Virus record (IMG/VR): IMGVR_UViG_2531839234_000008
Length of the DNA: 12,463 nucleotides
Direction: 5' to 3' (one strand)
Source of the DNA: a virus
Lineage: Duplodnaviria; Heunggongvirae; Uroviricota; Caudoviricetes
The position numbers and the translations under genes were made by a program. The notes beneath the pieces are model-generated. The model saw only the letters and a list, made by a program, of their open reading frames with translations, was not told the DNA's origin and made no database searches. This document shows, in pieces, positions 1 through 12,463 of this stretch (positions are counted from its first letter, which is position 1; each line of letters starts with the position of its first letter).

Positions 1-163
1 CAATTTCAGAACATCGACGCTTCTTCGCAAAATAAACCAGGGCGATATCAAAGGCGCATGTGATCAGCTACGGCGCTGGACATACGCTGGCGGTAAGCAA
101 TGGAAAGGGCTGATGACTCGCCGCGAGATTGAGCGTGAAGTCTGTTTGTGGGGGCAACAATGA
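1..163 (+). CDS. R: Phage endolysin (lysozyme), C-terminal fragment; 5' end lies outside the window
   Basis: Frame beginning at nt 2 is open from the window edge to TGA at 161-163 and translates to ...[53 protein letters not shown], which I recognise as the C-terminal tail of lambdoid prophage endolysins. Its stop overlaps the Rz start (ATGA at 160-163). Position immediately upstream of Rz fits the lysis cassette. Confidence 0.75.
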
Positions 164-597
164 GCAGGGTAACCGTTATTATCTCCGCTCTGGTTATCTG
201 CATTATCGCCTGCCTGTCATGGGCTGTTAATCATTACCGTGATAACGCCATCGCCTACAAAGAGCAGCGCGATAAAGCCACATCCATCATCGCTGATATG
301 CAGAAGCGGCAACGTGATGTAGCAGAACTTGACGCCAGATACACAAAGGAGCTTGCTGATGCTAATGCGACTATCGAAAGTCTCCGTGCTGATGTTTCTG
401 CTGGGCGTAAGCGCCTGCAAGTCTCCGCCACCTGTGCAAAGTCAACGACCGGAGCCAGCAGCATGGGCGATGGAGAAAGCCCAGGACTTACAGCAGATGC
501 TGAACTCAATTATTACCGTCTCCGAGGTGGAATCGACAAGATAACCGCGCAGGTTAACTACCTGCAGGAGTACATCAGGACGCAATGCCTGAAATAA
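160..597 (+). CDS. Rz: Rz i-spanin (inner-membrane spanin)
   Basis: Translation [39 protein letters not shown]...YTKELADA... closely matches lambda Rz as I remember it (N-terminal TM helix, coiled-coil periplasmic domain). The ORF track starts at GTG 148, but ATG at 160 matches the lambda Rz N-terminus and is coupled to the endolysin stop. Ends TAA 595-597. Confidence 0.9.
359..544 (+). CDS. Rz1: Rz1 o-spanin (outer-membrane lipoprotein), embedded in the +1 frame of Rz
   Basis: The +1 frame inside Rz encodes [20 protein letters not shown]|[13 protein letters not shown]..., a signal peptide with a lipobox-like VSAC followed by a proline-rich segment, as in lambda Rz1. AAAGGAG at 344-350 sits 8 nt before ATG 359. 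An alternative start is ATG 365. Confidence 0.75.
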
Positions 598-630
598 TTT
601 TTTTTGCAAATCACAAAGTCCATTTAATGA

Positions 631-654
631 GCCTCGCGATGCGGGGCTTTTTGC
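631..654 (+). terminator. Putative intrinsic terminator, first of two after Rz
   Basis: GCCTCGC (631-637) pairs with GCGGGGC (641-647) as a 7-bp stem (one G-U), loop GAT, followed by CTTTTTG. A T8 run (598-605) also follows the Rz stop directly. Confidence 0.45.
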
Positions 655-659
655 AATAA

Positions 660-684
660 ATGCGTACCGCAACGCATGTTTTTT
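660..684 (+). terminator. Putative intrinsic terminator, second of two after Rz
   Basis: ATGCGT (660-665) and ACGCAT (672-677) form a perfect 6-bp stem with a 6-nt loop, followed by G and a T6 run (679-684). Confidence 0.5.
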
Positions 685-799
685 ACACCGAACCTGCCCC
701 TTTGGAATGGGCCTTTGAGGATACCAGTTAGTGCTGGCGAGCCTCGGTGGGCTGGTTTCCTGTGCGGCAAAGGTTCATTTCAAAGAGTAGGTACACGCT

Positions 800-1297
800 A
801 TGAAATCATTAACCCTCTTCAATCAACCAATCCGTATCGGTGAAGATGGCATGATCTGCCTCACTGATATGTGGAAAGCCAGTGGTAAAAGTGAATCTGA
901 ATCTCCGTACCACTACCTGCGAAACAAGCAGACCAAAGAGTTCTTGGCTGAGCTGGAGAAAAACCACGAATCTGTGGTTTTTACGGAACGCGGTGCGCAC
1001 GGTGGAACTTATGGCGGAAAGTTCGTTGCTTATGATTACGCAGCATGGCTAAACCCCGGATTTAAATATGCAGCCTATAAAGTCCTCGATGATTACTTCA
1101 CCGGAGAGCTTCATCATCGGAACAGCTTAAGTGCGCAGCTCAACATGAAATGTCATGAGTTTGATCAGAAAAAAGACATGGCGAGCTTCTGTGGACAAGG
1201 CCTCGCGGCATGGCGCTACACGAAACCTGGTTTGATCGCTGAAATTAACTCCCTGGCTAACCAGTTGCAGATTTCGATCCCCGGGCTTCCGGGATGA
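800..1297 (+). CDS. KilA-N-like domain protein, accessory moron gene of unknown function
   Basis: 165-aa ORF. The N-terminal part (...FNQPIRIGEDGMICLTDMWKASGKSESESPYHYLRNKQTKEFLAELEKN...) fits the pattern I associate with KilA-N/APSES-type phage DNA-binding domains (IR-x-DG-x-L-D-x-A-G...P-x-x-(W/Y)L...T-x-E(L/F)). It lies between the lysis cassette and cos, a known moron hotspot in lambdoid phages. Shine-Dalgarno is weak. Domain call is from memory, not a profile search. Confidence 0.6.
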   Translation: MKSLTLFNQPIRIGEDGMICLTDMWKASGKSESESPYHYLRNKQTKEFLAELEKNHESVVFTERGAHGGTYGGKFVAYDYAAWLNPGFKYAAYKVLDDYFTGELHHRNSLSAQLNMKCHEFDQKKDMASFCGQGLAAWRYTKPGLIAEINSLANQLQISIPGLPG

Positions 1298-1551
1298 GTG
1301 ATCGTGTCATTGAATGCGCCTCCAGAGCGGGGCGCGACTTCTCAGAGTTCATGAAAGGCGAGAAGGGTATGATGGAAGCATTGGCCTCGGTGGATGAGTT
1401 TGGCGAGCAGCTGCGCCTCAACGGCTGTGTCAATCATCACTTTGTTAGCTACATGATGCGGAACTCGATCATGCAGGCATTCATGGACATGGCAAAAGCC
1501 GAGAGGAAAGAAGAGCGCCGGCGTAAGCGAGCGGAAGCAAAAGCGAAGTAG
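1294..1551 (+). CDS. Hypothetical small protein (85 aa) with a basic Lys/Arg/Glu-rich C-terminus, translationally coupled to the upstream gene
   Basis: ATG at 1294 overlaps the stop of the preceding ORF (ATGA, 1294-1297). Same-strand ORF ending TAG 1549-1551 and followed immediately by a strong hairpin. C-terminus AKAERKEERRRKRAEAKAK is highly charged. No homolog recognised. The frame is closed by TAA at 1258-1260, so this is not a frameshifted continuation of the KilA-N ORF. Confidence 0.5.
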   Translation: MSDRVIECASRAGRDFSEFMKGEKGMMEALASVDEFGEQLRLNGCVNHHFVSYMMRNSIMQAFMDMAKAERKEERRRKRAEAKAK

Positions 1552-1559
1552 CCATTACA

Positions 1560-1581
1560 AAGCCCATCTACTGGTGGGCTT
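1560..1581 (+). other. Strong hairpin directly after the moron stop codon (possible terminator or RNA-stability element, no U-tract)
   Basis: AAGCCCATC (1560-1568) pairs with GGTGGGCTT (1573-1581) as a roughly 9-bp stem (one G-U) with loop TACT, 9 nt after the TAG stop. It is followed by GATAATGG, not a T-run, so it is not a canonical intrinsic terminator. Confidence 0.35.
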
Positions 1582-1970
1582 GATAATGGCTTATACCCTA
1601 CACGGGATAACTTAACTGATATCCCTTTTAACGGATAAAGGTATTCAAGCCTGACACATCATGCGCTGTATCGTCGCTGTATTTCCGCATTAACCATGAC
1701 CGTAGCCCGACGGGGAATTCCTTCTGCGCGAGTGTGCGGGAATAATCAAAAACGATGCACACCGGGTTTTTACCGCGCTAATGATTCGCGGGTTTGTCCC
1801 TCATGCTCGCCAGTCCTGTGCGGGGGTGGAAGAAACAGGACACTCACACAGATTCTTGTGGGTCGATGCTATTCCTTTCTGGATTATCCCGATGCCATTC
1901 ATGCAAGGGCTGTATCAGACGTTCGTCATGGCTTTCAGGCTGACGGCTCCTCCCGGTGGGGTGGCCTGCC

Positions 1971-1990
1971 ACGGGGCGGGAGCGTCGCGG
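1971..1990. other. cosN: Candidate cosN (cohesive-end nicking site) of a lambda-like packaging system
   Basis: ACGGGGCGGGAGCGTCGCGG (1971-1990) versus the lambda cos junction as I recall it, ACGGGGCGGCGACCTCGCGG: same length, identical flanks (ACGGGGCGG ... TCGCGG), 15 of 20 positions identical, divergence only in the central 5 nt. It sits about 170 bp upstream of the small terminase start, as lambda cosN does relative to Nu1. By analogy the 12-nt cohesive end would be GGGCGGGAGCGT (1974-1985). Confidence 0.5.
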
Positions 1991-2150
1991 AAAAAGGCTA
2001 GTTTTTGCATTTTTATCGGCCACCATCATCTTTGCATCTTATTGATTATTAATGGTTATTTGTTTTTTGTATGTCGAATTGAGTGTTTTTTGTTCGACAT
2101 CGAACGCGTTTTCTTAAAGTTGTTCGCACGATGCATGTTTAAAGCTCTCC
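1991..2150. promoter_or_regulatory. cosB: Candidate cosB-like region (terminase small-subunit/IHF binding) between cosN and the terminase genes
   Basis: AT-rich segment between the cosN candidate and the terminase RBS. It contains a perfect 8-bp inverted repeat, ATGTCGAA (2071-2078) and TTCGACAT (2093-2100), with a 14-bp T-rich spacer. It also has three TGCAT-core repeats (TTTGCATTTTTA 2004-2015, TTTGCATCTTAT 2031-2042, ATGCATGTTTA 2131-2141) and a related TGTTCGCAC at 2121-2129. The role is inferred from position only. Confidence 0.35.
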
Positions 2151-2159
2151 GGAGGAAAT

Positions 2160-2651
2160 ATGGATCATGAGTTGAAAAACCTGGTGCTGAATATTAATCA
2201 ACTGGCGGCTTTATCTGGTCTGCACCGCCAGACTGTCGTGGCAAGACTGAAAAACATTCGTCCCGCTGGTGGACATGACAAACTCAAGCTATACCGGTTG
2301 ACCGATATTCTGACTGAATTTATGGGGTTACCACCGCCGGTTGCTGAGGGCGAAATGGATCCACATGAACGCAAAGCCTGGTATCAGTCTGAACGTGAGC
2401 GTCTTAAGTTCGAACAGGAAACGGCACAACTCATTCCGGCCAGTGATGTCAGACGGGAGTTTGCCATCTGGGCAAAAGCGGTCGTGCAGGTGCTGGAGAC
2501 ATTACCGGATATTCTGGAACGTGACTGTGGTCTGCAGCCTGCCGCTGTGAGCCGTGTTCAGTCCATTATTGATGATCTGCGCGATCAGATAGCCCTGCGG
2601 GTGACCGAAGCAGGTGCGGATGATGAGGAGGAATTACAGCAGGAGGAGTAA
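2160..2651 (+). CDS. Terminase small subunit (Nu1-like, N-terminal helix-turn-helix)
   Basis: 163-aa ORF with GGAGG 4 nt upstream of ATG 2160. N-terminus ...INQLAALSGLHRQTVVARL... looks like an HTH. Acidic C-terminus. Its stop overlaps the large terminase start (TAATG at 2649-2653). Position is immediately after cos and before the large subunit. Confidence 0.75.
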   Translation: MDHELKNLVLNINQLAALSGLHRQTVVARLKNIRPAGGHDKLKLYRLTDILTEFMGLPPPVAEGEMDPHERKAWYQSERERLKFEQETAQLIPASDVRREFAIWAKAVVQVLETLPDILERDCGLQPAAVSRVQSIIDDLRDQIALRVTEAGADDEEELQQEE

Positions 2652-4753
2652 TGCTGAATCAGGAAACCGCAAAGGCAGCACGAACCGATTCAGGTTATAT
2701 CCTTCGCGCACCGAGACGAATGCGGGTTGCTGATGCCGTTGCTCAGTATATGCGGGTGCCCATGGGGGCCGGGAACTCAGTCCCGTGGGATCCGCTGGTG
2801 GCACCGTATGTTATTGAGCCGATGAACTGCCTGGCCTCGCGTGAATACGACGCAGTGATATTTGTTGGCCCGGCACGAACCGGCAAGACTATCGGCCTGA
2901 TTGACGGCTGGGTGATTTACAACGTGATTTGCGATCCTGCGGATATGCCGATCATTCAGATGACGGAGGAAAAAGCCCGCGAACACTCCAAAAAACGACT
3001 CGCCAGAACGTTTCGCGTCAGCCCGGAAGTGGTCAGTCGCCTGAGTCCGAACAAAAATGACAACAACGTTTATGACAGAACATTCCTTGCTGGCAACTAC
3101 CTGAAAATCGGCTGGCCGTCAGTCAATATCATGTCCTCATCAGATTATAAATGCGTGGCGCTGACGGATTATGACCGTTTTCCGGAAGATATTGATGGCG
3201 AGGGGGATGCCTTCTCTCTTGCCTCAAAACGTACCACCACATTTATGTCCAGTGGTATGACGCTGGTGGAGAGTTCCCCCGGCAGGGATGTGAAGGATGT
3301 GAAATGGCGACGGACTTCACCGCATGAGGCTCCACCAACCACGGGGATACTGTCGCTCTATAACCGTGGCGATCGCCGTCGCTGGTACTGGCCCTGTCCA
3401 CACTGTGGTGAGTATTTTCAGCCCTGCGGCGATGTGGTTGCTGGTTTCCGTGATATTGCCGATCCCGTGCTGGCAAGTGAGGCGGCTTATATTCAGTGTC
3501 CTTCCTGTTCAGGACGGATTATGCCTGAACAAAAACGTGAGCTGAACGGACGTGGGGTCTGGTTGCGGGATGGTGAATCCATCAATGCGGATGGTAGTCG
3601 TTATGGTGATCCCCGACGCTCACGTATTGCGTCATTCTGGATGGAGGGTCCGGCAGCTGCTTACCAGACACTCTCGCAACTCGTTTACAAACTGCTTACT
3701 GCAGAACAGGAATACGAGACAACCGGAAGTGAAGAAACACTCAAGACGGTTATCAATACCGACTGGGGATTACCTTATCTTCCCCGCGCCAGCATGGAGC
3801 AACGAAAAAGTGAACTGCTTGAGCAGCGGGCAGAGCCAGTTCCTTCCAGCAGTGTGCCGGATGGCGTTAATTTCCTTGTGGCGACAGTGGATGTGCAGGC
3901 GGGACGTCATCGCCGTTTTGTGGTTCAGGTAACGGGCTATGGCAGCCGTGGCGAACGCTGGATTATTGATCGTTACAACATCACGCAGTCATTGCGCGGT
4001 GACAGCGACGGTGAGAGCCAGCGAATTGATCCGGCCAGCTATCCGGAAGACTGGGATGTCCTGCTGACGGATGTTTTTCATAAAAGCTGGCCGCTGGCCT
4101 CCGATCCTTCTCAACAAATGCGACTGATGGCAATGGCGGTGGACTCCGGCGGTGAAGACGGGGTCACTGATAATGCCTATAAATTCTGGCGTCGTTGCCG
4201 TCGTGATGGCCTTGGTAAACGTATTTACCTGTTTAAGGGCGACAGCATCCGGCGCGCAAAACTGATCACCCGTACATTCCCTGATAACACCGGACGAACG
4301 GGCCGACGGGCGCAGGCCGCAGGTGATGTGCCGCTCTGGCTTCTTCAGACGGATGCACTGAAAGACCGGGTGAATAACGCGTTATGGCGTGACTCTCCAG
4401 GTCCCGGCTATGTGCATTTCCCTGACTGGCTGGGGAGCTGGTTTTACGACGAACTGACGTATGAAGAGCGGAGTAGTGACGGGAAATGGAGTAAGCCGGG
4501 TCGCGGTGCCAACGAAGCTTTTGACCTGATGGTGTATGCCGAGGCTCTGGTCATTCTGCATGGATACGAAAAGATCCGCTGGCCGGATGCACCGGGGTGG
4601 GCGAGCCGGGAAACCTGGCTGGAGAGTGTCCCGGACAGTACCGAACCGTCACCCTCACCGGAACCGGTATCCACGCCTGTTAAAAAACAAAAACGGAAGA
4701 AAACAGTAACTGACGATGTTAACCCCTGGCTGACTTCCGGAGGATGGTTATGA
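2651..4753 (+). CDS. A: Terminase large subunit (lambda gpA family: ATPase plus endonuclease)
   Basis: 700-aa ORF with AGGAGGAG RBS. Walker A P-loop GPARTGKT at nt 2867-2890. Cys-rich segment WYWPCPHCGEYFQPCGD...CPSCSG resembles the lambda gpA ACPHCGEE region. Other segments (VNTDWGLPYLPR, ANEAFDLMVYAEAL) resemble remembered lambda gpA blocks. Confidence 0.92.
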   Translation: MLNQETAKAARTDSGYILRAPRRMRVADAVAQYMRVPMGAGNSVPWDPLVAPYVIEPMNCLASREYDAVIFVGPARTGKTIGLIDGWVIYNVICDPADMPIIQMTEEKAREHSKKRLARTFRVSPEVVSRLSPNKNDNNVYDRTFLAGNYLKIGWPSVNIMSSSDYKCVALTDYDRFPEDIDGEGDAFSLASKRTTTFMSSGMTLVESSPGRDVKDVKWRRTSPHEAPPTTGILSLYNRGDRRRWYWPCPHCGEYFQPCGDVVAGFRDIADPVLASEAAYIQCPSCSGRIMPEQKRELNGRGVWLRDGESINADGSRYGDPRRSRIASFWMEGPAAAYQTLSQLVYKLLTAEQEYETTGSEETLKTVINTDWGLPYLPRASMEQRKSELLEQRAEPVPSSSVPDGVNFLVATVDVQAGRHRRFVVQVTGYGSRGERWIIDRYNITQSLRGDSDGESQRIDPASYPEDWDVLLTDVFHKSWPLASDPSQQMRLMAMAVDSGGEDGVTDNAYKFWRRCRRDGLGKRIYLFKGDSIRRAKLITRTFPDNTGRTGRRAQAAGDVPLWLLQTDALKDRVNNALWRDSPGPGYVHFPDWLGSWFYDELTYEERSSDGKWSKPGRGANEAFDLMVYAEALVILHGYEKIRWPDAPGWASRETWLESVPDSTEPSPSPEPVSTPVKKQKRKKTVTDDVNPWLTSGGWL

Positions 4754-4962
4754 ACCAGAATGATATCGAAGCCATGATTCAGCGTTATACGGAAGCTGAA
4801 ATGGCGGTGCTGGACGGAAAATCCGTCACCTTTAATGGTCAGCAGATGACCATGGAAAACTTATCTGAGATCCGGCAGGGACGGCAGGAGTGGGAGCGCC
4901 GCCTTGCGGCTCTGATTACACGACGACGGGGGCATCCCGGGTACCGGCTGGCGAGGTTCTGA
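4750..4962 (+). CDS. W: gpW-like head-tail joining protein
   Basis: 70-aa product MNQNDIEAMIQRYTEAEMAVLDGKSVTFNGQQMTMENLSEIRQGRQEWERRLAALITRRRGHPGYRLARF resembles lambda gpW, including the C-terminal RRRG motif. GGAGG at 4739-4743 lies 6 nt before ATG 4750, which overlaps the large terminase stop (ATGA). The ORF-track start at 4744 has no spacer to the RBS. Confidence 0.8.
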   Translation: MNQNDIEAMIQRYTEAEMAVLDGKSVTFNGQQMTMENLSEIRQGRQEWERRLAALITRRRGHPGYRLARF

Positions 4963-6471
4963 TGGCAATTCTTGATGATGTGATTGGCGTTTTTTCACCA
5001 GGATGGAAAGCGGCAAGGCTGCGTTCCCGTGCGGTGATCCAGGCTTATGAGGCCGTAAAAACGACGCGGACACACAAAGCCCGGCGGGAAAACCGAACTG
5101 CCGACCAGTTAAGCCAGTACGGGGCCGTGTCGTTACGTGAGCAGGCCCGTTACCTTGATAACAACCACGATCTGGTTATTGGTGTATTTGACAAGCTGGA
5201 AGAACGGGTGGTGGGGAAAAACGGGATTATTGTCGAGCCACATCCGGTATTACGCAATGGGGCCATTGCCCGTGATCTGGCCGCGGAGATACGCACCCGA
5301 TGGAGTGAATGGTCTGTCAGTCCGGAAGTCACCGGGCAGTTTACCCGTCCGATGCTGGAACGTCTGATGCTGCGTACCTGGCTGCGCGATGGTGAGGTGT
5401 TTGCCCAGATGGTTTCCGGGCGCATAAACAGCCTGACGCCTTCTGCCGGTGTTCATTTCTGGCTGGAGGCGCTCGAGCCAGACTTTATTCCCATGACCAG
5501 TGATGAGAGCAACAGGCTGAATCAGGGCGTGTTTGTTGATGACTGGGGGCGTCCCGAAAAATATCTGGTGTATAAAAGCCGTCCCGTATCCGGACGGCAG
5601 ATGGAAACCAAAGAAGTGGATGCAGAGCGAATGCTGCATCTTAAATTTGTTCGCCGTCTGCACCAGATGCGCGGGACGTCTTTGTTGTCCGGTGTGCTGA
5701 TCCGCCTCAGTGCCCTGAAAGAGTATGAGGATTCTGAGCTGACTGCAGCAAGGATCGCCGCTGCTCTGGGGATGTACATCCGGAAAGGCGATGGGCAGAG
5801 CTATGAACCGGATGGTAATGGCAGCAAGGATAAGGAACGCGAGCTTACCATTCAGCCAGGCATTATTTACGACGATCTGAAACCCGGCGAAGAAATCGGA
5901 ATGGTGAAGTCGGATCGCCCCAATCCTAACCTTGAAACTTTTCGTAATGGTCAGTTGCGTGCCGTGGCGGCGGGCAGTCGTCTGAATTTTTTCCAGTACA
6001 GCGCGCAACTATAACGGCACTTACAGCGCCCAGCGTCAGGAGCTGGTTGAATCCACTGATGGCTACCTGATCCTGCAGGACTGGTTTATTGGTGCCGTCA
6101 CCCGCCCGATGTATCGTGCCTGGCTGAAACAGGCTGTGGCATCCGGTGTTATCAGGCTACCCCGCGATCTTGACCGTTCTTCACTGTATACCGCGGTGTA
6201 TTCCGGACCGGTGATGCCGTGGATTGACCCTGTTAAGGAGGCTGAGGCCTGGAAAATTCAGATTCGTGGTGGAGCAGCGACAGAATCAGACTGGGTACGT
6301 GCAGGTGGTCGTAATCCGGATGATGTCAAACGTCGGCGCAAGGCCGAAATTGATGAAAACCGCAAGCTGGATCTGGTATTTGATACCGATCCGGCCAGTG
6401 ATAAAGGAGGCAGCAGTGCCGCAACGAAACGACAGGAGCCGCAGCACACCGACGACCAGTCCGAAGAATAA
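4962..6471 (+). pseudogene. B: Portal protein (lambda gpB-like) interrupted by a single frameshift near a T6 run (5987-5992); pseudogene or sequencing error
   Basis: ORF from ATG 4962 (GAGG 5 nt upstream, coupled to the W stop) runs to TAA 6012-6014. The +1 frame is open from 5986 and continues to TAA 6469-6471. Across the junction the downstream frame reads ...LNFSSTARNYNGTYSAQRQ..., which aligns with the lambda gpB block ...SYEQLSRNYAQMSYSTAR... as I recall it, so both pieces are one portal gene. Removing one T from TTTTTT (5987-5992) restores a single ORF of about 502 aa. Confidence 0.8.
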
Positions 6472-8443
6472 TTCCTGGTTCAGGATGCAGGCTGGTCACC
6501 AGAGTGACGCGGATATTTATATTTATGACGAGATTGGTTTCTGGGGTGTTACAGCGAAGCAGTTTATCAGTGATCTGAATGCACTGGGCGATATCACCCA
6601 CATTAATCTCAATATCAATTCACCGGGTGGCGATGTCTTTGAAGGCATCGCCATTTTTAATGCACTGAAAACACATGGTGCGTCCATTACCGTTTATGTC
6701 GACGGTGTGGCGGCGTCAATGGCGTCGGTCATTGCGATGGTGGGAAAACCGGTCATTATGCCGGAAAACTCCTTCATGATGATTCATAAACCATTTGGCT
6801 TTACGGGCGGTGATGCGGAGGACATGCGCACCTATGCCGACCTGCTCGATAAAGTTGAGGCGGTTCTGTTACCCGCTTATGCACAGAAAACCGGGAAAAC
6901 CACCGATGAAATTGCTGCCATGCTGGCGGATGAGACCTGGATGTCCGGTGCCGAATGTCTGGCACATGGATTTGCTGATCAGGTGACGCCAGCCGTTAAG
7001 GCAATGGCATGTATTCAGTCAAAACGTACAGAGGAATTTAAAAAGATGCCGGAATCCATTCGAAACATGATTACTCCGCCACGCAACAGTGCTCCACGCG
7101 TACAGGATGATGGACCTGCAGCCTCCCGGACGCCAGTGCAGGCAGCAGCACCTGTGGTGGATGAAAACAGTATCCGTGCGCAGGTACTGGCAGAGCAAAA
7201 AGCGCGTGTAAACGGTATTAATGATCTGTTTGCCATGTTTGGCGGGCGTTATCAGACGCTGCAGGCTCAGTGTCTTGCCGATCCTGAATGTTCGCTGGAG
7301 CAGGCCCGCGAAAAGCTGTTGAACGAGATGGGGCGCGAGTCCACGCCATCTAATAAAAATACCCCGGCTCATATTTATGCCGGAAACGGTAATTTTGTGG
7401 GGGATGGGATCCGCCAGGCGCTGATGGCGCGTGCCGGATTTGAAAAAACCGAACGTGATAATGTCTACAACGGGATGACCCTGCGTGAATATGCCCGTAT
7501 GTCACTGACTGAACGGGGTATTGGGGTTTCCAGTTATAACCCGATGCAGATGGTCGGTGCGGCGTTCACACACAGTACGTCTGACTTCGGTAATATTCTG
7601 CTGGATGTTGCGAACAAAGCCATTCTGCAGGGCTGGGAAGATGCCCCTGAAACCTATGAACAGTGGACGCGGAAAGGTCAGTTGTCTGATTTTAAAATTG
7701 CCCATCGTGTGGGTATGGGGGGCTTCAGTGCTCTGCGTCAGGTGCGTGAAGGGGCGGAATATAAATACGTCACCACCGGAGATAAACAGGCCACTATTGC
7801 ACTGGCTACCTATGGCGAGCTGTTCAGTATCACCCGTCAGGCCATTATCAATGATGATCTGAATATGCTGACCGATGTCCCGATGAAACTGGGCCGTGCG
7901 GCGAAATCCACTATTGCCGATCTGGTTTATGCCATTCTGACGTCTAACCCGAAAATCTCCACAGATAATGTAAGTCTGTTCGATAAAGCGAAACATGCAA
8001 ACGTACTGGAGAGCGCTGCAATGGACGTGGCATCGCTGGATAAAGCCCGCCAGTTGATGCGCGTTCAGAAAGAGGGGGAGCGTCATCTGAATATTCGTCC
8101 TGCGTTCGTACTGGTACCGACGGCGATGGAGTCTGTTGCTAACCAGGTCATTCGCTCCTCAAGTGTCAAGGGGGCTGACATTAACGCCGGTATTATTAAC
8201 CCGGTGAAAGATTTTGCGACCGTTATTGCAGAGCCTCGTCTTGATGATAACAGCCAGACCACCTTCTACCTGGCTGCGTCAAAAGGCTCCGATACGATTG
8301 AAGTGGCTTATCTCAACGGTGTGGATACGCCATATATTGATCAGATGGAGGGCTTCAGTGTGGATGGCGTGACAACGAAAGTGCGTATTGACGCCGGTGT
8401 CGCGCCAGTTGATCACCGCGGTCTGGTGAAATGTACGGCGTAA
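6416..8443 (+). CDS. Prohead protease (ClpP/S14-like) fused in one ORF to the presumed scaffold/major capsid region
   Basis: 675 codons from GTG 6416, which has AAGGAGG 5 nt upstream (alternative start ATG 6485). The N-terminal ~200 aa carry ClpP-like motifs: ...NSPGGDVFEGIAIFNALK..., catalytic-Ser context GVAASMASV (Ser codon 6716-6718), His context MMIHKP. The remaining ~470 aa have no recognisable motif. Because no separate capsid gene exists between portal and the head-completion/tail genes, synteny implies the major capsid protein is encoded here. Confidence 0.75.
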   Translation: MPQRNDRSRSTPTTSPKNNSWFRMQAGHQSDADIYIYDEIGFWGVTAKQFISDLNALGDITHINLNINSPGGDVFEGIAIFNALKTHGASITVYVDGVAASMASVIAMVGKPVIMPENSFMMIHKPFGFTGGDAEDMRTYADLLDKVEAVLLPAYAQKTGKTTDEIAAMLADETWMSGAECLAHGFADQVTPAVKAMACIQSKRTEEFKKMPESIRNMITPPRNSAPRVQDDGPAASRTPVQAAAPVVDENSIRAQVLAEQKARVNGINDLFAMFGGRYQTLQAQCLADPECSLEQAREKLLNEMGRESTPSNKNTPAHIYAGNGNFVGDGIRQALMARAGFEKTERDNVYNGMTLREYARMSLTERGIGVSSYNPMQMVGAAFTHSTSDFGNILLDVANKAILQGWEDAPETYEQWTRKGQLSDFKIAHRVGMGGFSALRQVREGAEYKYVTTGDKQATIALATYGELFSITRQAIINDDLNMLTDVPMKLGRAAKSTIADLVYAILTSNPKISTDNVSLFDKAKHANVLESAAMDVASLDKARQLMRVQKEGERHLNIRPAFVLVPTAMESVANQVIRSSSVKGADINAGIINPVKDFATVIAEPRLDDNSQTTFYLAASKGSDTIEVAYLNGVDTPYIDQMEGFSVDGVTTKVRIDAGVAPVDHRGLVKCTA

Positions 8444-8466
8444 ACGTCGCAGACAACAACTCTGAT

Positions 8467-8487
8467 GGCCCGTAAGGGCTTTTTTTG
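8467..8487 (+). terminator. Putative intrinsic terminator after the capsid ORF
   Basis: GGCCC (8467-8471), GTAA tetraloop, GGGCT (8476-8480) giving a 5-bp stem, followed by an 8-T run (8480-8487), 24 nt after the stop at 8443. Confidence 0.5.
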
Positions 8488-8497
8488 TACCTGAAAT

Positions 8498-8516
8498 CAG
8501 CCCCTGAACGGGGCTG
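8498..8516 (+). other. Second GC-rich hairpin just upstream of the next gene's RBS, no U-tract
   Basis: CAGCCCC (8498-8504) pairs with GGGGCTG (8510-8516) as a perfect 7-bp stem with loop TGAAC. It ends 13 nt before ATG 8530. Confidence 0.4.
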
Positions 8517-8529
8517 TGCGGAGACAGTT

Positions 8530-8853
8530 ATGGCAAAGAATTTTGTAGAAGAAGGAAAAACGGTGGCGATTGTTGCCAGTGCAGCCATCAGCAGCGGAGA
8601 TCTGGTGCAGGTGGGCGATGTTTTTGCGGTGGCGCTGACCGATATTCCACAGGGTGAAACAGGCGACGGCATGACCGAAGGTGTGTTTATGCTGCCTAAG
8701 CTGAAAACGGATGACATGAAAACGGGTAAGAAGGTTTATCTGAAGTCAGGAAAAGTTCAGCTGACTAACAGCGGCTCTGATCCGCTGGTCGGGGTTGTCT
8801 GGGCAGATGCCGGAACCAGTGCAGAAGAAGTGCCGGTAAAACTCAATGTCTGA
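8530..8853 (+). CDS. Small head protein, possibly a decoration/cement protein (DUF2190-like as I recall the family)
   Basis: 107-aa product MAKNFVEEGKTVAIVASAAISSGDLVQVGDVFAVALTDIPQGETGDG... Position is directly after the capsid ORF. ATG 8530 is preferred over the ORF-track start 8485 because of the hairpins and a GGAGA about 6 nt upstream. Family assignment is from memory and uncertain. Confidence 0.55.
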   Translation: MAKNFVEEGKTVAIVASAAISSGDLVQVGDVFAVALTDIPQGETGDGMTEGVFMLPKLKTDDMKTGKKVYLKSGKVQLTNSGSDPLVGVVWADAGTSAEEVPVKLNV

Positions 8854-9121
8854 TCCCTTTTCCCGGCTGGCAGCGCGTATGGATGCTATCACGGTCAGAA
8901 AGATGGGAAAGACAGCCTCGATTAATGATGTCGATATGACTGTGATCCCGGGAGAAACACTGGCAGAGCTGAATGCTCTGTCCGGACCTGCGGTCTCTCT
9001 GGTGGTGTTTTCTTCGGGATACCGCCCACGGCGCGGGGATCGCGTTGTTTATGACGGACAACAATGGACGGTCACACGGCATGAACGCTTTAACGGTAAG
9101 CCAATGATCTTTATTGAGTAA
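8846..9121 (+). CDS. Head-tail joining protein (lambda gpFII-like)
   Basis: 91-aa product. The C-terminal block ...RPRRGDRVVYDGQQWTVTRHE... resembles lambda FII ...LRRGDTLTIGEENFWVDRV... Overlaps the upstream stop by 8 nt (translational coupling). Position is before Z. Confidence 0.6.
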   Translation: MSDPFSRLAARMDAITVRKMGKTASINDVDMTVIPGETLAELNALSGPAVSLVVFSSGYRPRRGDRVVYDGQQWTVTRHERFNGKPMIFIE

Positions 9122-9132
9122 AGAGGTGTGGG

Positions 9133-9711
9133 ATGAAGGGGCTTGAGAATGCCATCCGCAATCTGAACAGCCTTGATACCCGTATGGTGCCACAGGCCAG
9201 CGCATGGGCGATAAACCGTGTGGCACAGAAAGCGGGCTCGGTTGCCACCCGGCAGGTTGCCGGGAATACCGTTGCGGGAGATAACCAGGTGAAAGGGATC
9301 CCCCTGAAACTGGTTCGTCAGCGTGTCCGGGTGTTTAAAGCCAGTCCGTCAGGAAAAATGACGGCCAGGATCCGCGTTAACCGGGGCAATCTGCCCGCCA
9401 TTAAGCTGGGGACAGCCCGGGTCAGACTGGCCCAGCGTGGTGGAAAACTGCAGTACCGTGGCAGTGTGCTGAAGGTGGGTAAATATCTTTTCCGGGATGC
9501 GTTTATTCAGCAACTGGCGAATGGTCGCTGGCATGTGATGCGGCGTATTGATGGCAAAAATCGTTACCCCATTGATGTGGTGAAAATCCCGCTGTCCGGA
9601 CCGCTGACACAGGCATTTGAAGATGCCCGCGACCGCATCATTGCTGCGGAAATGCCGAAACAGCTGGGGTATGCACTGAAACAACAACTGAGGTTATGGC
9701 TGACCCGATGA
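9133..9711 (+). CDS. Z: Tail completion protein Z (lambda gpZ-like)
   Basis: 192 aa. Clear similarity to remembered lambda gpZ: KGLE...L, INRVA, ...RIRVNRGNLPAIKLG..., FIQQLANGRWHVMRRIDGKNRYPIDVVKIPL..., LGYALKQQLR. AAGAGGTG RBS before ATG 9133. Confidence 0.88.
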   Translation: MKGLENAIRNLNSLDTRMVPQASAWAINRVAQKAGSVATRQVAGNTVAGDNQVKGIPLKLVRQRVRVFKASPSGKMTARIRVNRGNLPAIKLGTARVRLAQRGGKLQYRGSVLKVGKYLFRDAFIQQLANGRWHVMRRIDGKNRYPIDVVKIPLSGPLTQAFEDARDRIIAAEMPKQLGYALKQQLRLWLTR

Positions 9712-10109
9712 ACCGACATACACAAATCCGCCAGGTCGTACTGGCACGCCTTCGGGAACAGTGTGGAGACAGCGCCACGTTTTTTGACGGGCTTCCGGCA
9801 TTTGTTGATGCGCAGGAACTGCCTGCCGTGGCGGTGTGGCTGAGTGATGCTCAGTACACCGGAAAAATGACGGATGAAGATGACTGGCAGGCTGTTCTGC
9901 ATATTGCTGTCTTCATCCGGGCACAGGCACCGGATTCAGAGCTGGATATGTGGATGGAGAGCACCATTTTCCCGGCCCTGAATGATGTATCGGCACTTTC
10001 CGGACTCATCGACACCCTGATCCCACTCGGTTTTAACTATCAACGTGATAATGAGATGGCCACCTGGGCGATGGCGGAAATCACGTACCAGATCACGTAC
10101 ACGAATTAA
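9708..10109 (+). CDS. U: Tail terminator protein U (lambda gpU-like)
   Basis: Product MNRHTQIRQVVLARL...GDSATFFDGLPAFVDAQELPAVAVWLSDAQYTG...APDSELDMWMES...ITYQITY aligns along its length with remembered lambda gpU (MKHTELRAAVLDAL...GATFFDGRPAVFDEADFPAVAVYLTGAEYTG...VPDSELDAWMES...LTYVITY). ATG 9708 overlaps the Z stop (ATGA). An in-frame ATG at 9696 is the alternative start. Confidence 0.88.
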   Translation: MNRHTQIRQVVLARLREQCGDSATFFDGLPAFVDAQELPAVAVWLSDAQYTGKMTDEDDWQAVLHIAVFIRAQAPDSELDMWMESTIFPALNDVSALSGLIDTLIPLGFNYQRDNEMATWAMAEITYQITYTN

Positions 10110-10119
10110 GGAGGTGGTA

Positions 10120-10863
10120 ATGACCACGCCAAATCCACTGGCAAAGACGAAAGGTGCGGGGACGACGTTCTGGATGTATACCGGCAACGGCGATGCGTTT
10201 GCGAACCCTTTGTCGGACACTGACTGGCTGCGTCTTGCGATGGTGAAGGATCTGCAACCTGGCGAAATGACCGCTGATGCAGAAGATGACACTTATCTCG
10301 ATGATGAAGATGCAGACTGGAAAACGACAACCCAGGGGCAGAAATCCGTTGGTGATACTTCGGCGACGCTGGCCTGGCGTCCGGGTGACAGCGGGCAGAA
10401 AAAACTGGTTCAGTTGTTCGACTCCGGTGAAGTCTGCGCGTTTCGTATCAAATATCCCAACGGCACTGTTGATGTTTTCCGCGGCTGGCTGAGCTCACTG
10501 GGTAAAACCATTGCCTCAAAAGACGTGATGACCCGCACAGTGAAAATCAGCGGTGTGGGGCGTCCATATCTGGCAGAGGAGGGCACTGAAACTGTGGGCG
10601 TTACCGGGCTGACGGTGGCACCGGCATCCGCCAGTGTCAATGTGGGAGCAACCACCACGCTGACCTTTACAGTAAAACCTGACGGAGCCAGTGACAAAGC
10701 GATCAGTGTGCATTCGACAGATCCACAGACAGCCACTGTGACCCTGAACGGACTTGTGGCCACGGTGAAAGGCGTGAAGCAGGGCAGCGTCAGCATTGTG
10801 GGCATGACCGCTGACGGGAATTTTGTGGCTGTGGCTGCGGTGACTGTCAGCGCTGCAGGTTAA
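10120..10863 (+). CDS. V: Major tail protein V (lambda gpV-like) with C-terminal Ig-like (Big_2-type) domain
   Basis: Product MTTPNPLAKTKGAGTTFWMYTGNGDAFANPLSDTDW...YLDDEDADW...NGTVDVFRGWLSSLGK... matches remembered lambda gpV closely. The C-terminal ~90 aa (TGLTVAPASASVNVGATTTLTFTVKPDG...) look like an Ig-like domain, as in lambda gpV. AAGGAGG at 10108-10114 precedes ATG 10120. The ORF-track start 10045 lies upstream inside U. Confidence 0.92.
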   Translation: MTTPNPLAKTKGAGTTFWMYTGNGDAFANPLSDTDWLRLAMVKDLQPGEMTADAEDDTYLDDEDADWKTTTQGQKSVGDTSATLAWRPGDSGQKKLVQLFDSGEVCAFRIKYPNGTVDVFRGWLSSLGKTIASKDVMTRTVKISGVGRPYLAEEGTETVGVTGLTVAPASASVNVGATTTLTFTVKPDGASDKAISVHSTDPQTATVTLNGLVATVKGVKQGSVSIVGMTADGNFVAVAAVTVSAAG

Positions 10864-10883
10864 CAGGACGATACTCATCATTT

Positions 10884-10907
10884 GCCCCGGTTATCCGGGG
10901 CTTTTTT
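10884..10907 (+). terminator. Putative intrinsic terminator between V and G
   Basis: GCCCCGG (10884-10890), loop TTAT, CCGGGGC (10895-10901) giving a perfect 7-bp GC stem, followed by a T6 run (10902-10907). Confidence 0.55.
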
Positions 10908-10923
10908 GCAGGTGGAGAACATG

Positions 10924-11310
10924 ATGTTTCTGAAACAGGGCACGTTTAATTATGAAAAGCAGTCCGTGGTGCTCAGTGAGCTGTCCGGGCTGCAGAGAAT
11001 TGAATATCTGGCGTTTGTTCAGCAGCGAACGGCAAAGTTTGATGCCGAAGAGGGAGAACTGCCGGAGGCTGAACGACAGATTGCTTTTCTGCGGATGGGG
11101 ATGGATATCAATGCCTGGCTGGTTTCCCGCTCACTGTGGAATGCGGAACAGTCTCAGGATGTTGAGACGCTTTGCGCATCCGTTATTACAACATGGTCGT
11201 ATGATGCCCTGGGAGCGGGGGCGGAGATGGTTCTGTCGCTGAGCGGTATGGGAGCCATTGAGAATGCCGGGGATTTGGAGCATGAGGTGCTGACGCCGGA
11301 AAAGTCCTGA
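10924..11310 (+). CDS. G: Tail assembly chaperone G (lambda gpG-like)
   Basis: Product MFLKQGTFNYEKQSVVLSELSGLQRIEYLAFV... matches remembered lambda gpG (MFLKTESFEHNGVTVTLSELSALQRIEHLAL...). GGTGGAG RBS at 10911-10917. ATG 10924 is preferred over ATG 10921 and over the ORF-track start 10882, which lies inside the terminator hairpin. Stop TGA 11308-11310. Confidence 0.82.
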   Translation: MFLKQGTFNYEKQSVVLSELSGLQRIEYLAFVQQRTAKFDAEEGELPEAERQIAFLRMGMDINAWLVSRSLWNAEQSQDVETLCASVITTWSYDALGAGAEMVLSLSGMGAIENAGDLEHEVLTPEKS

Positions 11311-11648
11311 CGCGGGAAATGCAGTTTGTCATGCGGCTTGCCCGGGAGTTCCGGCGGGCAGACTGGCGGCGGATGCTGTCGGAAATGTCGGCCACTGAGC
11401 TTGGTGAGTGGGGCGATTATTTCCGGATGCAGAGCTTCAGTGATGTGTGGATGGATGCGCAGTTTGCCTCGCTGAAGGCATTGATCGTGAGAATGGTGTC
11501 CGGTAGCAGTGATGCTGCGGTGGCTGATTTCAGCCTTTTACCGGAAGAGAACGGGATACCGGAGCGAACGGACGAAGAACTGATGCATCTTGGGGAAGGT
11601 ATTTCCGGAGGTGTGCGTTATGGACCAGATAGCCAACCTGGTCATTGA
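11286..11648 (+). CDS. T: gpT-like frame, expected to be expressed only as a G-T fusion by -1 ribosomal frameshifting
   Basis: The frame that is -1 relative to G is open from 11286 (after an in-frame TGA at 11283-11285) to TGA 11646-11648, overlapping the last 25 nt of G exactly as in the lambda G/T arrangement. It has no good independent RBS (ATG 11319 is downstream of the G stop and lacks a Shine-Dalgarno). Followed by tape measure gene H. Confidence 0.65.
   Translation, partial: GADAGKVLTREMQFVMRLAREFRRADWRRMLSEMSATELGEWGDYFRMQSFSDVWMDAQFASLKALIVRMVSGSSDAAVADFSLLPEENGIPERTDEELMHLGEGISGGVRYGPDSQPGH
11298..11304 (+). promoter_or_regulatory. Candidate -1 frameshift slippery site for G-T fusion (GGAAAAG)
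   Basis: Within the G/T overlap the G-frame codons are G|GAA|AAG (11298-11304), one substitution from the lambda slippery heptamer G|GGA|AAG as I recall it. A-site Lys-tRNA re-pairing from AAG to AAA is perfect; P-site re-pairing from GAA to GGA is imperfect. It is the only slippery-like sequence in the 25-nt overlap. Confidence 0.4.
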
Positions 11649-12463
11649 TTTGGGGATTGATGCGGCAGAGTTTAAAAATGAAATTCCCCGTATCAAAAAC
11701 CTTCTGAATGGTGCAGCCAGCGATGCAGAACGGTCTTCTGCCCGTATGCAGCGTTTTATGGAGCGTCAGACTCAGGCCGCCCGGCAGACAATGCAGGCGG
11801 CTTCTTCGGCTGCAACAGCCGCATCCGTCCATGCGCAGACGGTGGAGAAGAGCGCACAGGCTCATGAACGCATGGCCCGCGAGGTGGAGCAAACCCGCCA
11901 GCGTATGGAGGCACTGAGCCAGAAAATGCGCGAGGAACAGGCGCAGGCCATGGCTCTGGCGGAGGCTCAGGATAAAGCGGCTGCTGCGTTTTATCGTCAG
12001 ATTGACAGTGTGAAACAGGCCGGTGCGGGGCTGCAGGAATTACAGCGTATTCAGCAACAGATCCGACAGGCCAGAAACAGTGGCGGGATTGGTCAGCAGG
12101 ATTATCTGGCGCTGATTTCTGAGGTTACGGCGAAAACCCGTGTTCTTACACAGGCTGAGGAAGAGGCTACCCGACAGAAAGTGGCGTTTATCCGTCAGCT
12201 TAAAGAGCAGGCAACCCGCCAGAATCTTTCTTCTTCTGAGTTGCTTCGTGCTAAGGCTGCCCAGCTGGGGGTAAGCAGTGCTGCAGAAGTGTATATCCGC
12301 AAAATGGAGCAGGCAGGAAAAGCCACGCATTCGCTGGGTCTGAAAAGTGCAGCAGCCCGTCAGGAGATAGGCGTTCTGATAGGTGAACTGGCCCGCGGCA
12401 ATTTAGCGGTTGGCGGATTTTTTCCGTCACCCAGCCCAGCACTTTGGGCATGCAGCCTGGCAG
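11620..12463 (+). CDS. H: Tail tape measure protein H (lambda gpH-like), N-terminal ~281 codons; continues beyond the window
   Basis: ATG 11620 opens a frame with no stop through 12463, checked codon by codon. N-terminus MDQIANLVIDLGIDAAEFKNE... resembles remembered lambda gpH (MAEPVGDLVVDLSLDAARFDE...). The rest is Ala/Gln/Glu/Arg-rich and helical-looking, typical of tape measure proteins. Start overlaps the end of the T frame by 29 nt. Confidence 0.85.
   Translation, partial: MDQIANLVIDLGIDAAEFKNEIPRIKNLLNGAASDAERSSARMQRFMERQTQAARQTMQAASSAATAASVHAQTVEKSAQAHERMAREVEQTRQRMEALSQKMREEQAQAMALAEAQDKAAAAFYRQIDSVKQAGAGLQELQRIQQQIRQARNSGGIGQQDYLALISEVTAKTRVLTQAEEEATRQKVAFIRQLKEQATRQNLSSSELLRAKAAQLGVSSAAEVYIRKMEQAGKATHSLGLKSAAARQEIGVLIGELARGNLAVGGFFPSPSPALWACSLA

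Follow-up and report, generated by a model that had tools for sequence, protein, structure and literature searches.

A lambda-type cosN nicking site with a diverged core in an Sp3-like prophage region, most likely a relic copy

We found that positions 1972-1987 of the window (the whole stretch of DNA that was analyzed, 12,463 nucleotides) very probably represent the cosN nicking site of a lambda-type cos belonging to the mEp460/cdtI/Tritos/O157-Sp3 lambdoid group, and that the copy in the window is most likely a relic. We put the probability of this reading at roughly 0.85. The site is of a known kind, and published phage genomes have already been deposited with the identical site as their start. 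It marks both ends of the virion map, left and right, in a common group of lambdoid phages and prophages from E. coli, and its value lies in correct annotation.

RESULTS

Sequence and geometry of cosN

The elements of the cos region, all upstream of the terminase genes, are as follows.

1945-1951, plus strand: cosQ-like heptamer GGCTCCT (packaging-termination signal), placed by alignment to lambda and relatives
1952-1971, plus strand: cosQ-cosN spacer CCCGGTGGGGTGGCCTGCCA, conserved in length and semi-conserved in sequence
1972-1987, no strand assigned: cosN in the 16-bp sense, CG + 12-bp cohesive-end sequence + CG
1974-1985, plus strand: predicted 12-nt 5' cohesive end GGGCGGGAGCGT, matching the termini of the cdtI and Tritos records
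1989-2006, plus strand: conserved element GGAAAAAGGCTAGTTTTT, directly 3' of cosN
2007-2159, plus strand: candidate cosB (small-terminase binding region), the sequence type of which follows the small-terminase allele

The lambda reference junction, ACGGGGCGGCGACCTCGCGG, was rebuilt from NC_001416 by joining the final 3 nt of the record to its initial 17 nt. Positions 1971-1990 of the window, ACGGGGCGGGAGCGTCGCGG, are identical to this junction at 16 of 20 positions, and the mismatches fall at positions 10, 11, 12, and 14 of the 20-mer, which correspond to bp 7, 8, 9, and 11 of the cohesive end. Across both strands of the window this was the top match to the lambda junction, the runner-up reaching 14/20. 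When windows were simulated with a first-order Markov model, a match of at least 16/20 was found anywhere in 7 of 500 (about 1.4%). The 16/20 match by itself would thus be suggestive, and the context decides.

The cosN frame, CG, GGGCGGGAGCGT, CG, is present at 1972-1987 with the left half GGGCGG, and by analogy with lambda the nicks are predicted at 1973/1974 on the top strand and at 1985/1986 on the bottom strand. Two-fold symmetry holds at 8 of the 16 positions of cosN here and at 10 of 16 in lambda. The distance from the predicted right nick (1985/1986) to the small-terminase ATG at 2160 is 175 bp; in lambda, Nu1 starts at bp 191, 179 bp past the cohesive end. In a literature search with the 11-mer GGGCGGGAGCG, the matches were confined to papers on G-quadruplexes and vectors.

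An earlier note on this DNA had proposed a lambda-like cosN with a diverged core, and gene context, related loci, and two deposited termini now back that proposal. Alignment to NC_001416 indicated that the lambda sequence used in the note was accurate enough to locate a real site. The note had counted 15 of 20 identities; the site is indeed in the sequence and does match, and the figure is corrected to 16. Its statement that the divergence is limited to the central 5 nt is borne out, because the four mismatches all lie inside a 5-nt span, and the distance of about 170 bp to the small terminase gene, as in lambda, agrees with the 175 bp and 179 bp given above. The predicted overhang, which the note had expected to be unlike that of lambda, is GGGCGGGAGCGT, the exact start of the cdtI and Tritos records.

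The cosQ heptamer and the spacer

The distance from cosQ to the top-strand nick is 22 nt in the window and 23 nt in lambda, and CCGGTG directly follows cosQ in both. A C at position 1947 turns GGGTCCT, the form of the heptamer in lambda and in every close relative, into GGCTCCT. Compared with a GGGTCCT heptamer about 20-25 bp before cosN, the window therefore has the fitting spacing, and its heptamer agrees at 6 of 7 positions and is not the intact signal. The spacer is 21-23 nt long across relatives, in which the motifs CCGGTG and CTGCCA recur.

The distribution of GGCTCCT points to an impaired copy rather than another kind of site. In 121 IMG/VR loci chosen by cosN alone, GGGTCCT was found in 118 and GGCTCCT in 3 (among the matches listed), and the three GGCTCCT loci have the exact upstream context of the window. 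The portal frameshift described below was also present in both GGCTCCT loci that were long enough to check (IMG/VR contigs L081 and L090). The same variant occurs in prophage Sp3 of E. coli Sakai, and it was found in 0 of 76 loci collected by large-terminase homology. The C at 1947 hits the GGT core that is common to all natural cosQ alleles seen, and on these alignments the G-to-C change would be harmful. The lambda cosQ genetics of Wieczorek and Feiss from 2001 reportedly give a further ground for reading the change in this way.

The 76 homolog loci carry three cosQ alleles at the same spacing from cosN (AGGTACT in 41, GGGTCCT in 33, and GGGTCCC in 2; loci L140-L219). AGGTACT is the allele of all Pasteurellaceae and Morganellaceae loci in which a cos was found. 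A 2015 paper remarked that natural cosQ variation was not apparent, and AGGTACT as a second common allele sits uneasily with that remark. When the large-terminase alignment was searched for a column tracking AGGTACT versus GGGTCCT, no clean one was found; the column with the highest mutual information reached 0.56 of 1.0 bit and lay in the variable C-terminal tail. Two or more common cosQ alleles in one terminase clade could help to define what reads cosQ.

The segment downstream of cosN

In 70+ loci from different genera, the element GGAAAAAGGCTAGTTTTT is kept as GGRAAASGGCTAGTTTT between two neighbouring segments that diverge. It occupies the place of the lambda cosN-cosB interval (I2), which is needed for termination, and we infer its role from that place.

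In the candidate cosB, the equivalent of R3 according to lambda spacing (bp 50-65) would be positions 2023-2038. A search of this segment for a lambda-style R-site triad found none, and the only repeat was an 8-bp perfect inverted repeat at 2071-2078 and 2093-2100. A search of the candidate cosB for an IHF site likewise gave no significant match: an IHF-like site with one mismatch lies on the minus strand at 2035-2047 and is at chance level (5 found in the whole window versus 8.6 expected).

Terminase genes and gene neighbourhood

The two terminase genes lie directly behind the candidate cosB.

2160-2651, plus strand: small terminase subunit (DUF1441, phrog_141), 163 aa; Pfam DUF1441, 4.6e-44; PHROG 141 'terminase small subunit', 2.7e-77
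2651-4753, plus strand: large terminase subunit of the gpA family (ATPase + endonuclease), 700 aa; Pfam GpA_ATPase, 1.2e-70, and GpA_nuclease, 1.9e-85

The large terminase, which also belongs to phrog_15, matched lambda gpA at 24% identity (BLASTP, E value of 2e-18). A gpA-family large terminase, as looked for beside a lambda-like cos, is thus present, and by analogy this would be the enzyme expected to nick cosN. The small terminase gave no alignment with lambda Nu1 by BLASTP, and its Pfam family is DUF1441, not Phage_Nu1, so that it is not of the Nu1 type. The lambda mechanism is transferred here by family-level homology.

Upstream of the cos region are the Rz lysis gene (148-597), a KilA-N/ORF11CD3 gene (800-1297), and a small ORF. 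After the large terminase gene come genes for a W-like head-tail adaptor, a lambda-family portal, and a ClpP-protease/major-capsid fusion.

Breadth of conservation

The exact 24-mer GGGCGGGAGCGTCGCGGAAAAAGG was found in at least 120 IMG/VR contigs. We also collected 80 loci from GTDB species representatives (Enterobacterales and Pasteurellaceae) by homology to the large terminase of the window (61-99% identity), with no DNA pattern used in the selection. In 76 of the 80 loci, a cosQ, a 21-23-nt spacer, a cosN-like site, and an A-tract/GGCTAG/T-tract element were found before the large terminase gene, mostly about 560-780 bp from its start and farther away in three loci.

In most of the 76 loci, cosN has the form CCACG/GGGCGG, six variable bp, then CGCGG. 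There are 44 different 12-mers, with the variation mostly at bp 7-12, and the 12-mer of the window occurs 3 times. In a sub-clade including Citrobacter, Rosenbergiella, and others, CCGAG replaces CCACG as the left flank. A study from the Feiss laboratory (PMC4669245) described the same pattern: natural variation in lambda-like cosN sites falls mostly at bp 7-12, and the CG pairs beside the nicks are kept. Compared with lambda, cosN of N15 differs at bp 9 and 12, and that of Gifsy-1 at bp 8, 9, and 11 (PMC4669245). For mEp213 and LLS, a 2025 paper gave the related 12-mer GGGCGGCGCGCT as the putative cohesive end (PMC12315714). As far as the alignment goes, cosN of the window fits the published bp 7-12 pattern exactly.

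The same junction in published phages and at their record ends

By megablast and blastn against GenBank phages, the junction was found in PhiR40_1/47_1/55_1 and 606R10, and the PhiR40_1/47_1/55_1 genomes are 98% identical to the window over the cos region. The junction ...CCTGCCACG/GGGCGGGAGCGT/CGCGGAAAAAGGCTAG is identical in PhiR40_1, 569R4, phi458, cdtI, Tritos, ev081, and HannyBb, and the bases to the right of GGGCGGGAGCGT in this common junction are CGCGG...

The records of cdtI (AB285204, 2007) and Tritos (OV696610) begin with GGGCGGGAGCGT and end with ...CCTGCCACG (...CCACG). Both starts may have been set by analogy with lambda and not by end mapping; the LF82 paper gives no account of how the Tritos ends were set. 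According to the title of its paper, cdtI is an 'inducible prophage' (Asakura et al. 2007). None of the IMG/VR contigs with the site, among the matches listed, starts exactly at the left cohesive end, and most of them are prophages from isolate genomes.

Two further records are disturbed at this junction. The genome of Ayreon was opened arbitrarily at the small-terminase gene, according to the Ayreon paper, and its record (MF807953) contains about 140 nt of chimeric sequence inside cosN, between ...CCACGGGG and GGAAAAAGG. This insert (locus positions about 213-353) includes a piece of the phage's own small-terminase gene. The record of mEp460_4F5 (LR595868, positions 1-30) starts 5 nt before the predicted left nick and is without 3 nt (TCG) at the predicted right nick; this gap may have arisen in assembly, or it may be a real 9-nt variant. 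From the arrangement of the two records, both disturbances appear to be assembler artefacts of the sort expected where reads stop at a physical virion end, which would be indirect evidence of such an end. Phage records in this group with an arbitrary start or with a junction artefact, such as Ayreon and mEp460_4F5, could be corrected with the help of the site.

One cosN with three downstream modules

Among the IMG/VR matches listed, three downstream sequence types were found behind an identical cosN. Of the 99 listed loci that had a called downstream ORF, all except 3 have the small-terminase allele that goes with their downstream type. The alleles are the window type, the mEp460/4F5 type (87% identical to the window protein), and the cdtI type (38%).

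The large terminases of the window and cdtI (window 2651-4753 versus cdtI locus 733-2832) are 87% identical overall. By a count from the printed alignment, their identity is about 77% in the first 380 residues and about 99% in residues 381-700, a stretch that holds most of the nuclease domain. This suggests that the N-terminal part of the large terminase and the small terminase travel with cosB, and that the rest of the large terminase, including most of the nuclease domain, may travel with cosN. Such modularity would fit the lambda model, in which recognition of cosN (and cosQ) falls to the nuclease part of the large terminase. The comparison of window and cdtI also suggests a recombination joint inside the large-terminase gene.

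The earlier note had supposed that the diverged core bears on terminase specificity, and published genetics does not support this supposition. In comparisons of lambda with N15, changes at cosN bp 7-12 were without measurable effect, and specificity resided in cosB and the small terminase (PMC4669245). One cosN with three cosB/small-terminase modules likewise argues against a role of the diverged core in setting specificity. Positions 7, 8, 9, and 11 belong to the naturally variable half of the cohesive end, where change is tolerated in lambda genetics. Changes at these positions alter the annealing of the sticky ends, not which terminase acts.

State of the copy in the window

Over positions 1551-12406, the window shares 99.86% identity with prophage Sp3 of E. 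coli O157:H7 Sakai. Sp3 lies between ybhC and ybhB, beside the bio operon, and we take it to be CP-933K of EDL933. The top complete-genome matches listed were O157:H7 or O157, or strains with no serotype shown. The portal gene of the window is broken.

4962-6471, plus strand: lambda-family portal pseudogene, +1 frameshift near 5985-5990

When tblastn was run with the intact portal of PhiR40_1, residues 1-343 were found in frame 3 and residues 343-502 in frame 1. The lesion is a 1-nt insertion relative to the plaque-forming PhiR40_1, and because the portal is split, the prophage cannot make its own portal. In RefSeq, the Sakai Sp3 equivalent (ECs_0826/0827) is also a pseudogene. Asadulghani et al. 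(2009; PMC2669165) reported that Sp3 is without repressor and replication genes, that its integrase and portal genes are disrupted, and that it was negative for circularisation, replication, and packaging.

Positions 1-1550 of the window (the Rz end, the KilA-N gene, and the small ORF) are not Sp3-like, so the window comes from a mosaic relative of Sp3. None of the complete E. coli genomes in the collection has window 1-2200 contiguously at an identity of at least 99%. We also observed that positions 1-1550 are 98.9% identical to another O157 prophage, with the mosaic junction near 1551. Judged by these matches, the window is an Sp3-like packaging/head/tail region joined to the lysis-proximal segment of another prophage.

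The portal frameshift, the cosQ heptamer GGCTCCT, and the Sp3 data together mean that the copy is best read as a relic, probably an intact cosN inside a decaying packaging module. The claim that packaged DNA ends here, with the lysis genes at the right end and terminase at the left, accordingly divides in two: the layout is upheld by the context and the relatives, while for this copy the portal frameshift, the cosQ change, and the unpackaged state of Sp3 speak against it. The cosQ change and the portal frameshift serve as a further marker that the O157:H7 Sp3-type prophage is no longer packageable. It is very doubtful that the cosQ G-to-C change is tolerated or compensated and that the Sp3-type cos is a competent substrate for another O157 prophage in the same host whose small terminase and cosB type match. 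If it were true, such a prophage could begin or end packaging at this cos in trans and thereby mobilise the adjacent effector genes nleB, nleC, nleH, and nleD of a prophage that is otherwise dead.

DISCUSSION

Alternative explanations

The alternative that the cos is fully functional in this prophage, such that induced virions would have DNA ends at 1974/1985, draws on the intact cosN, conserved flanking element, and terminase genes and on the 98% identity over the region to functional phages (PhiR40_1 and relatives). We consider it improbable, since it has to be reconciled with the +1 frameshift in the portal gene, with a change at a cosQ base that is invariant in 118 of 121 listed sites and in 76 of 76 related sites, and with the gene losses, disrupted integrase, and negative circularisation, replication, and packaging results of the near-identical Sakai Sp3. 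It is also quite unlikely that the cos is real and the geometry of cutting differs from that of lambda, with an overhang other than 12 nt or with nicks displaced by a few bases. The missing 3 nt at the right nick of mEp460_4F5, the start of that record 5 nt before the left nick, and the CCGAG left flank of the Citrobacter/Rosenbergiella sub-clade would be accommodated by such a geometry. However, most of the 76 loci retain the CG...12 bp...CG frame around 6 bp that vary, two independent records (cdtI and Tritos) start at the lambda-equivalent base, and terminases of the gpA type make 12-nt 5' ends (PMC4669245, PMC9026076).

That the site is a chance resemblance, or simply part of a protein-coding ORF, is scarcely credible. 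The 1.4% of simulated windows that reached 16/20 leave some room for chance, and plus-strand ORFs at 1696-2001 and 1781-2170 span the site, where PhiR40_1 has an annotated CDS for a hypothetical protein (XSB42407) and a PHROG of unknown function (phrog_17397) covers the region. But in 76 of 80 loci, drawn from two bacterial orders, the site keeps a fixed place before a homologous terminase, with a spacer that differs in length by 1 nt, and its variation is mostly at cosN bp 7-12, not at codon third positions. The spanning ORFs have no Pfam matches, and their annotation differs among relatives in strand and extent. We rejected these ORFs as real genes on the fixed-place conservation of cos, the lack of Pfam matches, and the inconsistent annotation. 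The conservation recorded as phrog_17397 more likely reflects cos DNA rather than protein.

Proposed mechanism

Our preferred reading is a lambda-type cosN nicking site, and its working is described here by analogy with the lambda paradigm (PMC9026076, PMC4669245). In a functional relative, the small terminase would bind cosB, and two large-terminase protomers would nick cosN 12 bp apart. Strand separation would then leave 12-nt 5'-GGGCGGGAGCGT overhangs, and packaging would run rightwards from the terminase genes. Termination would follow when the next cos is cut with the aid of cosQ, cosN, and the segment just 3' of cosN, so that the virion chromosome would carry its lysis genes at the right end. 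We infer the nick positions, the overhang polarity, and the effect of the cosQ change from the same analogy.

Comparison with known systems

The cos region of the window has the lambda order of cosQ, cosN, candidate cosB, small terminase, and large terminase. It also shares with lambda the GGGCGG left half of cosN, the CG pairs beside both nicks, the distance from nick to small terminase (175 bp here versus 179 bp in lambda), and a large terminase of the gpA family. Unlike lambda, it has changes at cohesive-end bp 7, 8, 9, and 11, a cosQ that reads GGCTCCT in this copy, no recognisable R3-I1-R2-R1 pattern, a large terminase just 24% identical to gpA, and a small terminase of DUF1441/phrog_141 with no BLASTP similarity to Nu1.

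With the natural cosN variants of N15, phiD326, Gifsy-1, and mEp213/LLS (Feiss laboratory 2015, 2017), the window shares variation at bp 7-12 together with conserved CG flanks and left half, whereas its 12-mer carries four changes from lambda, compared with two in N15 and three in Gifsy-1.

In cdtI and Tritos, the cosN, the left flank, and the next ~20 bp are identical to the window. They differ from it in an intact cosQ, GGGTCCT, in a slightly different cosQ-cosN spacer, and in a small terminase (180 aa, MSNVSG...; 38% identical by global alignment) and cosB of another type; they also formed phage particles, and Tritos was isolated from plaques and imaged. Sakai Sp3 has the same cosQ variant as the window and a portal gene broken at the equivalent position, and it differs in that window 1-1550 is not Sp3-like.
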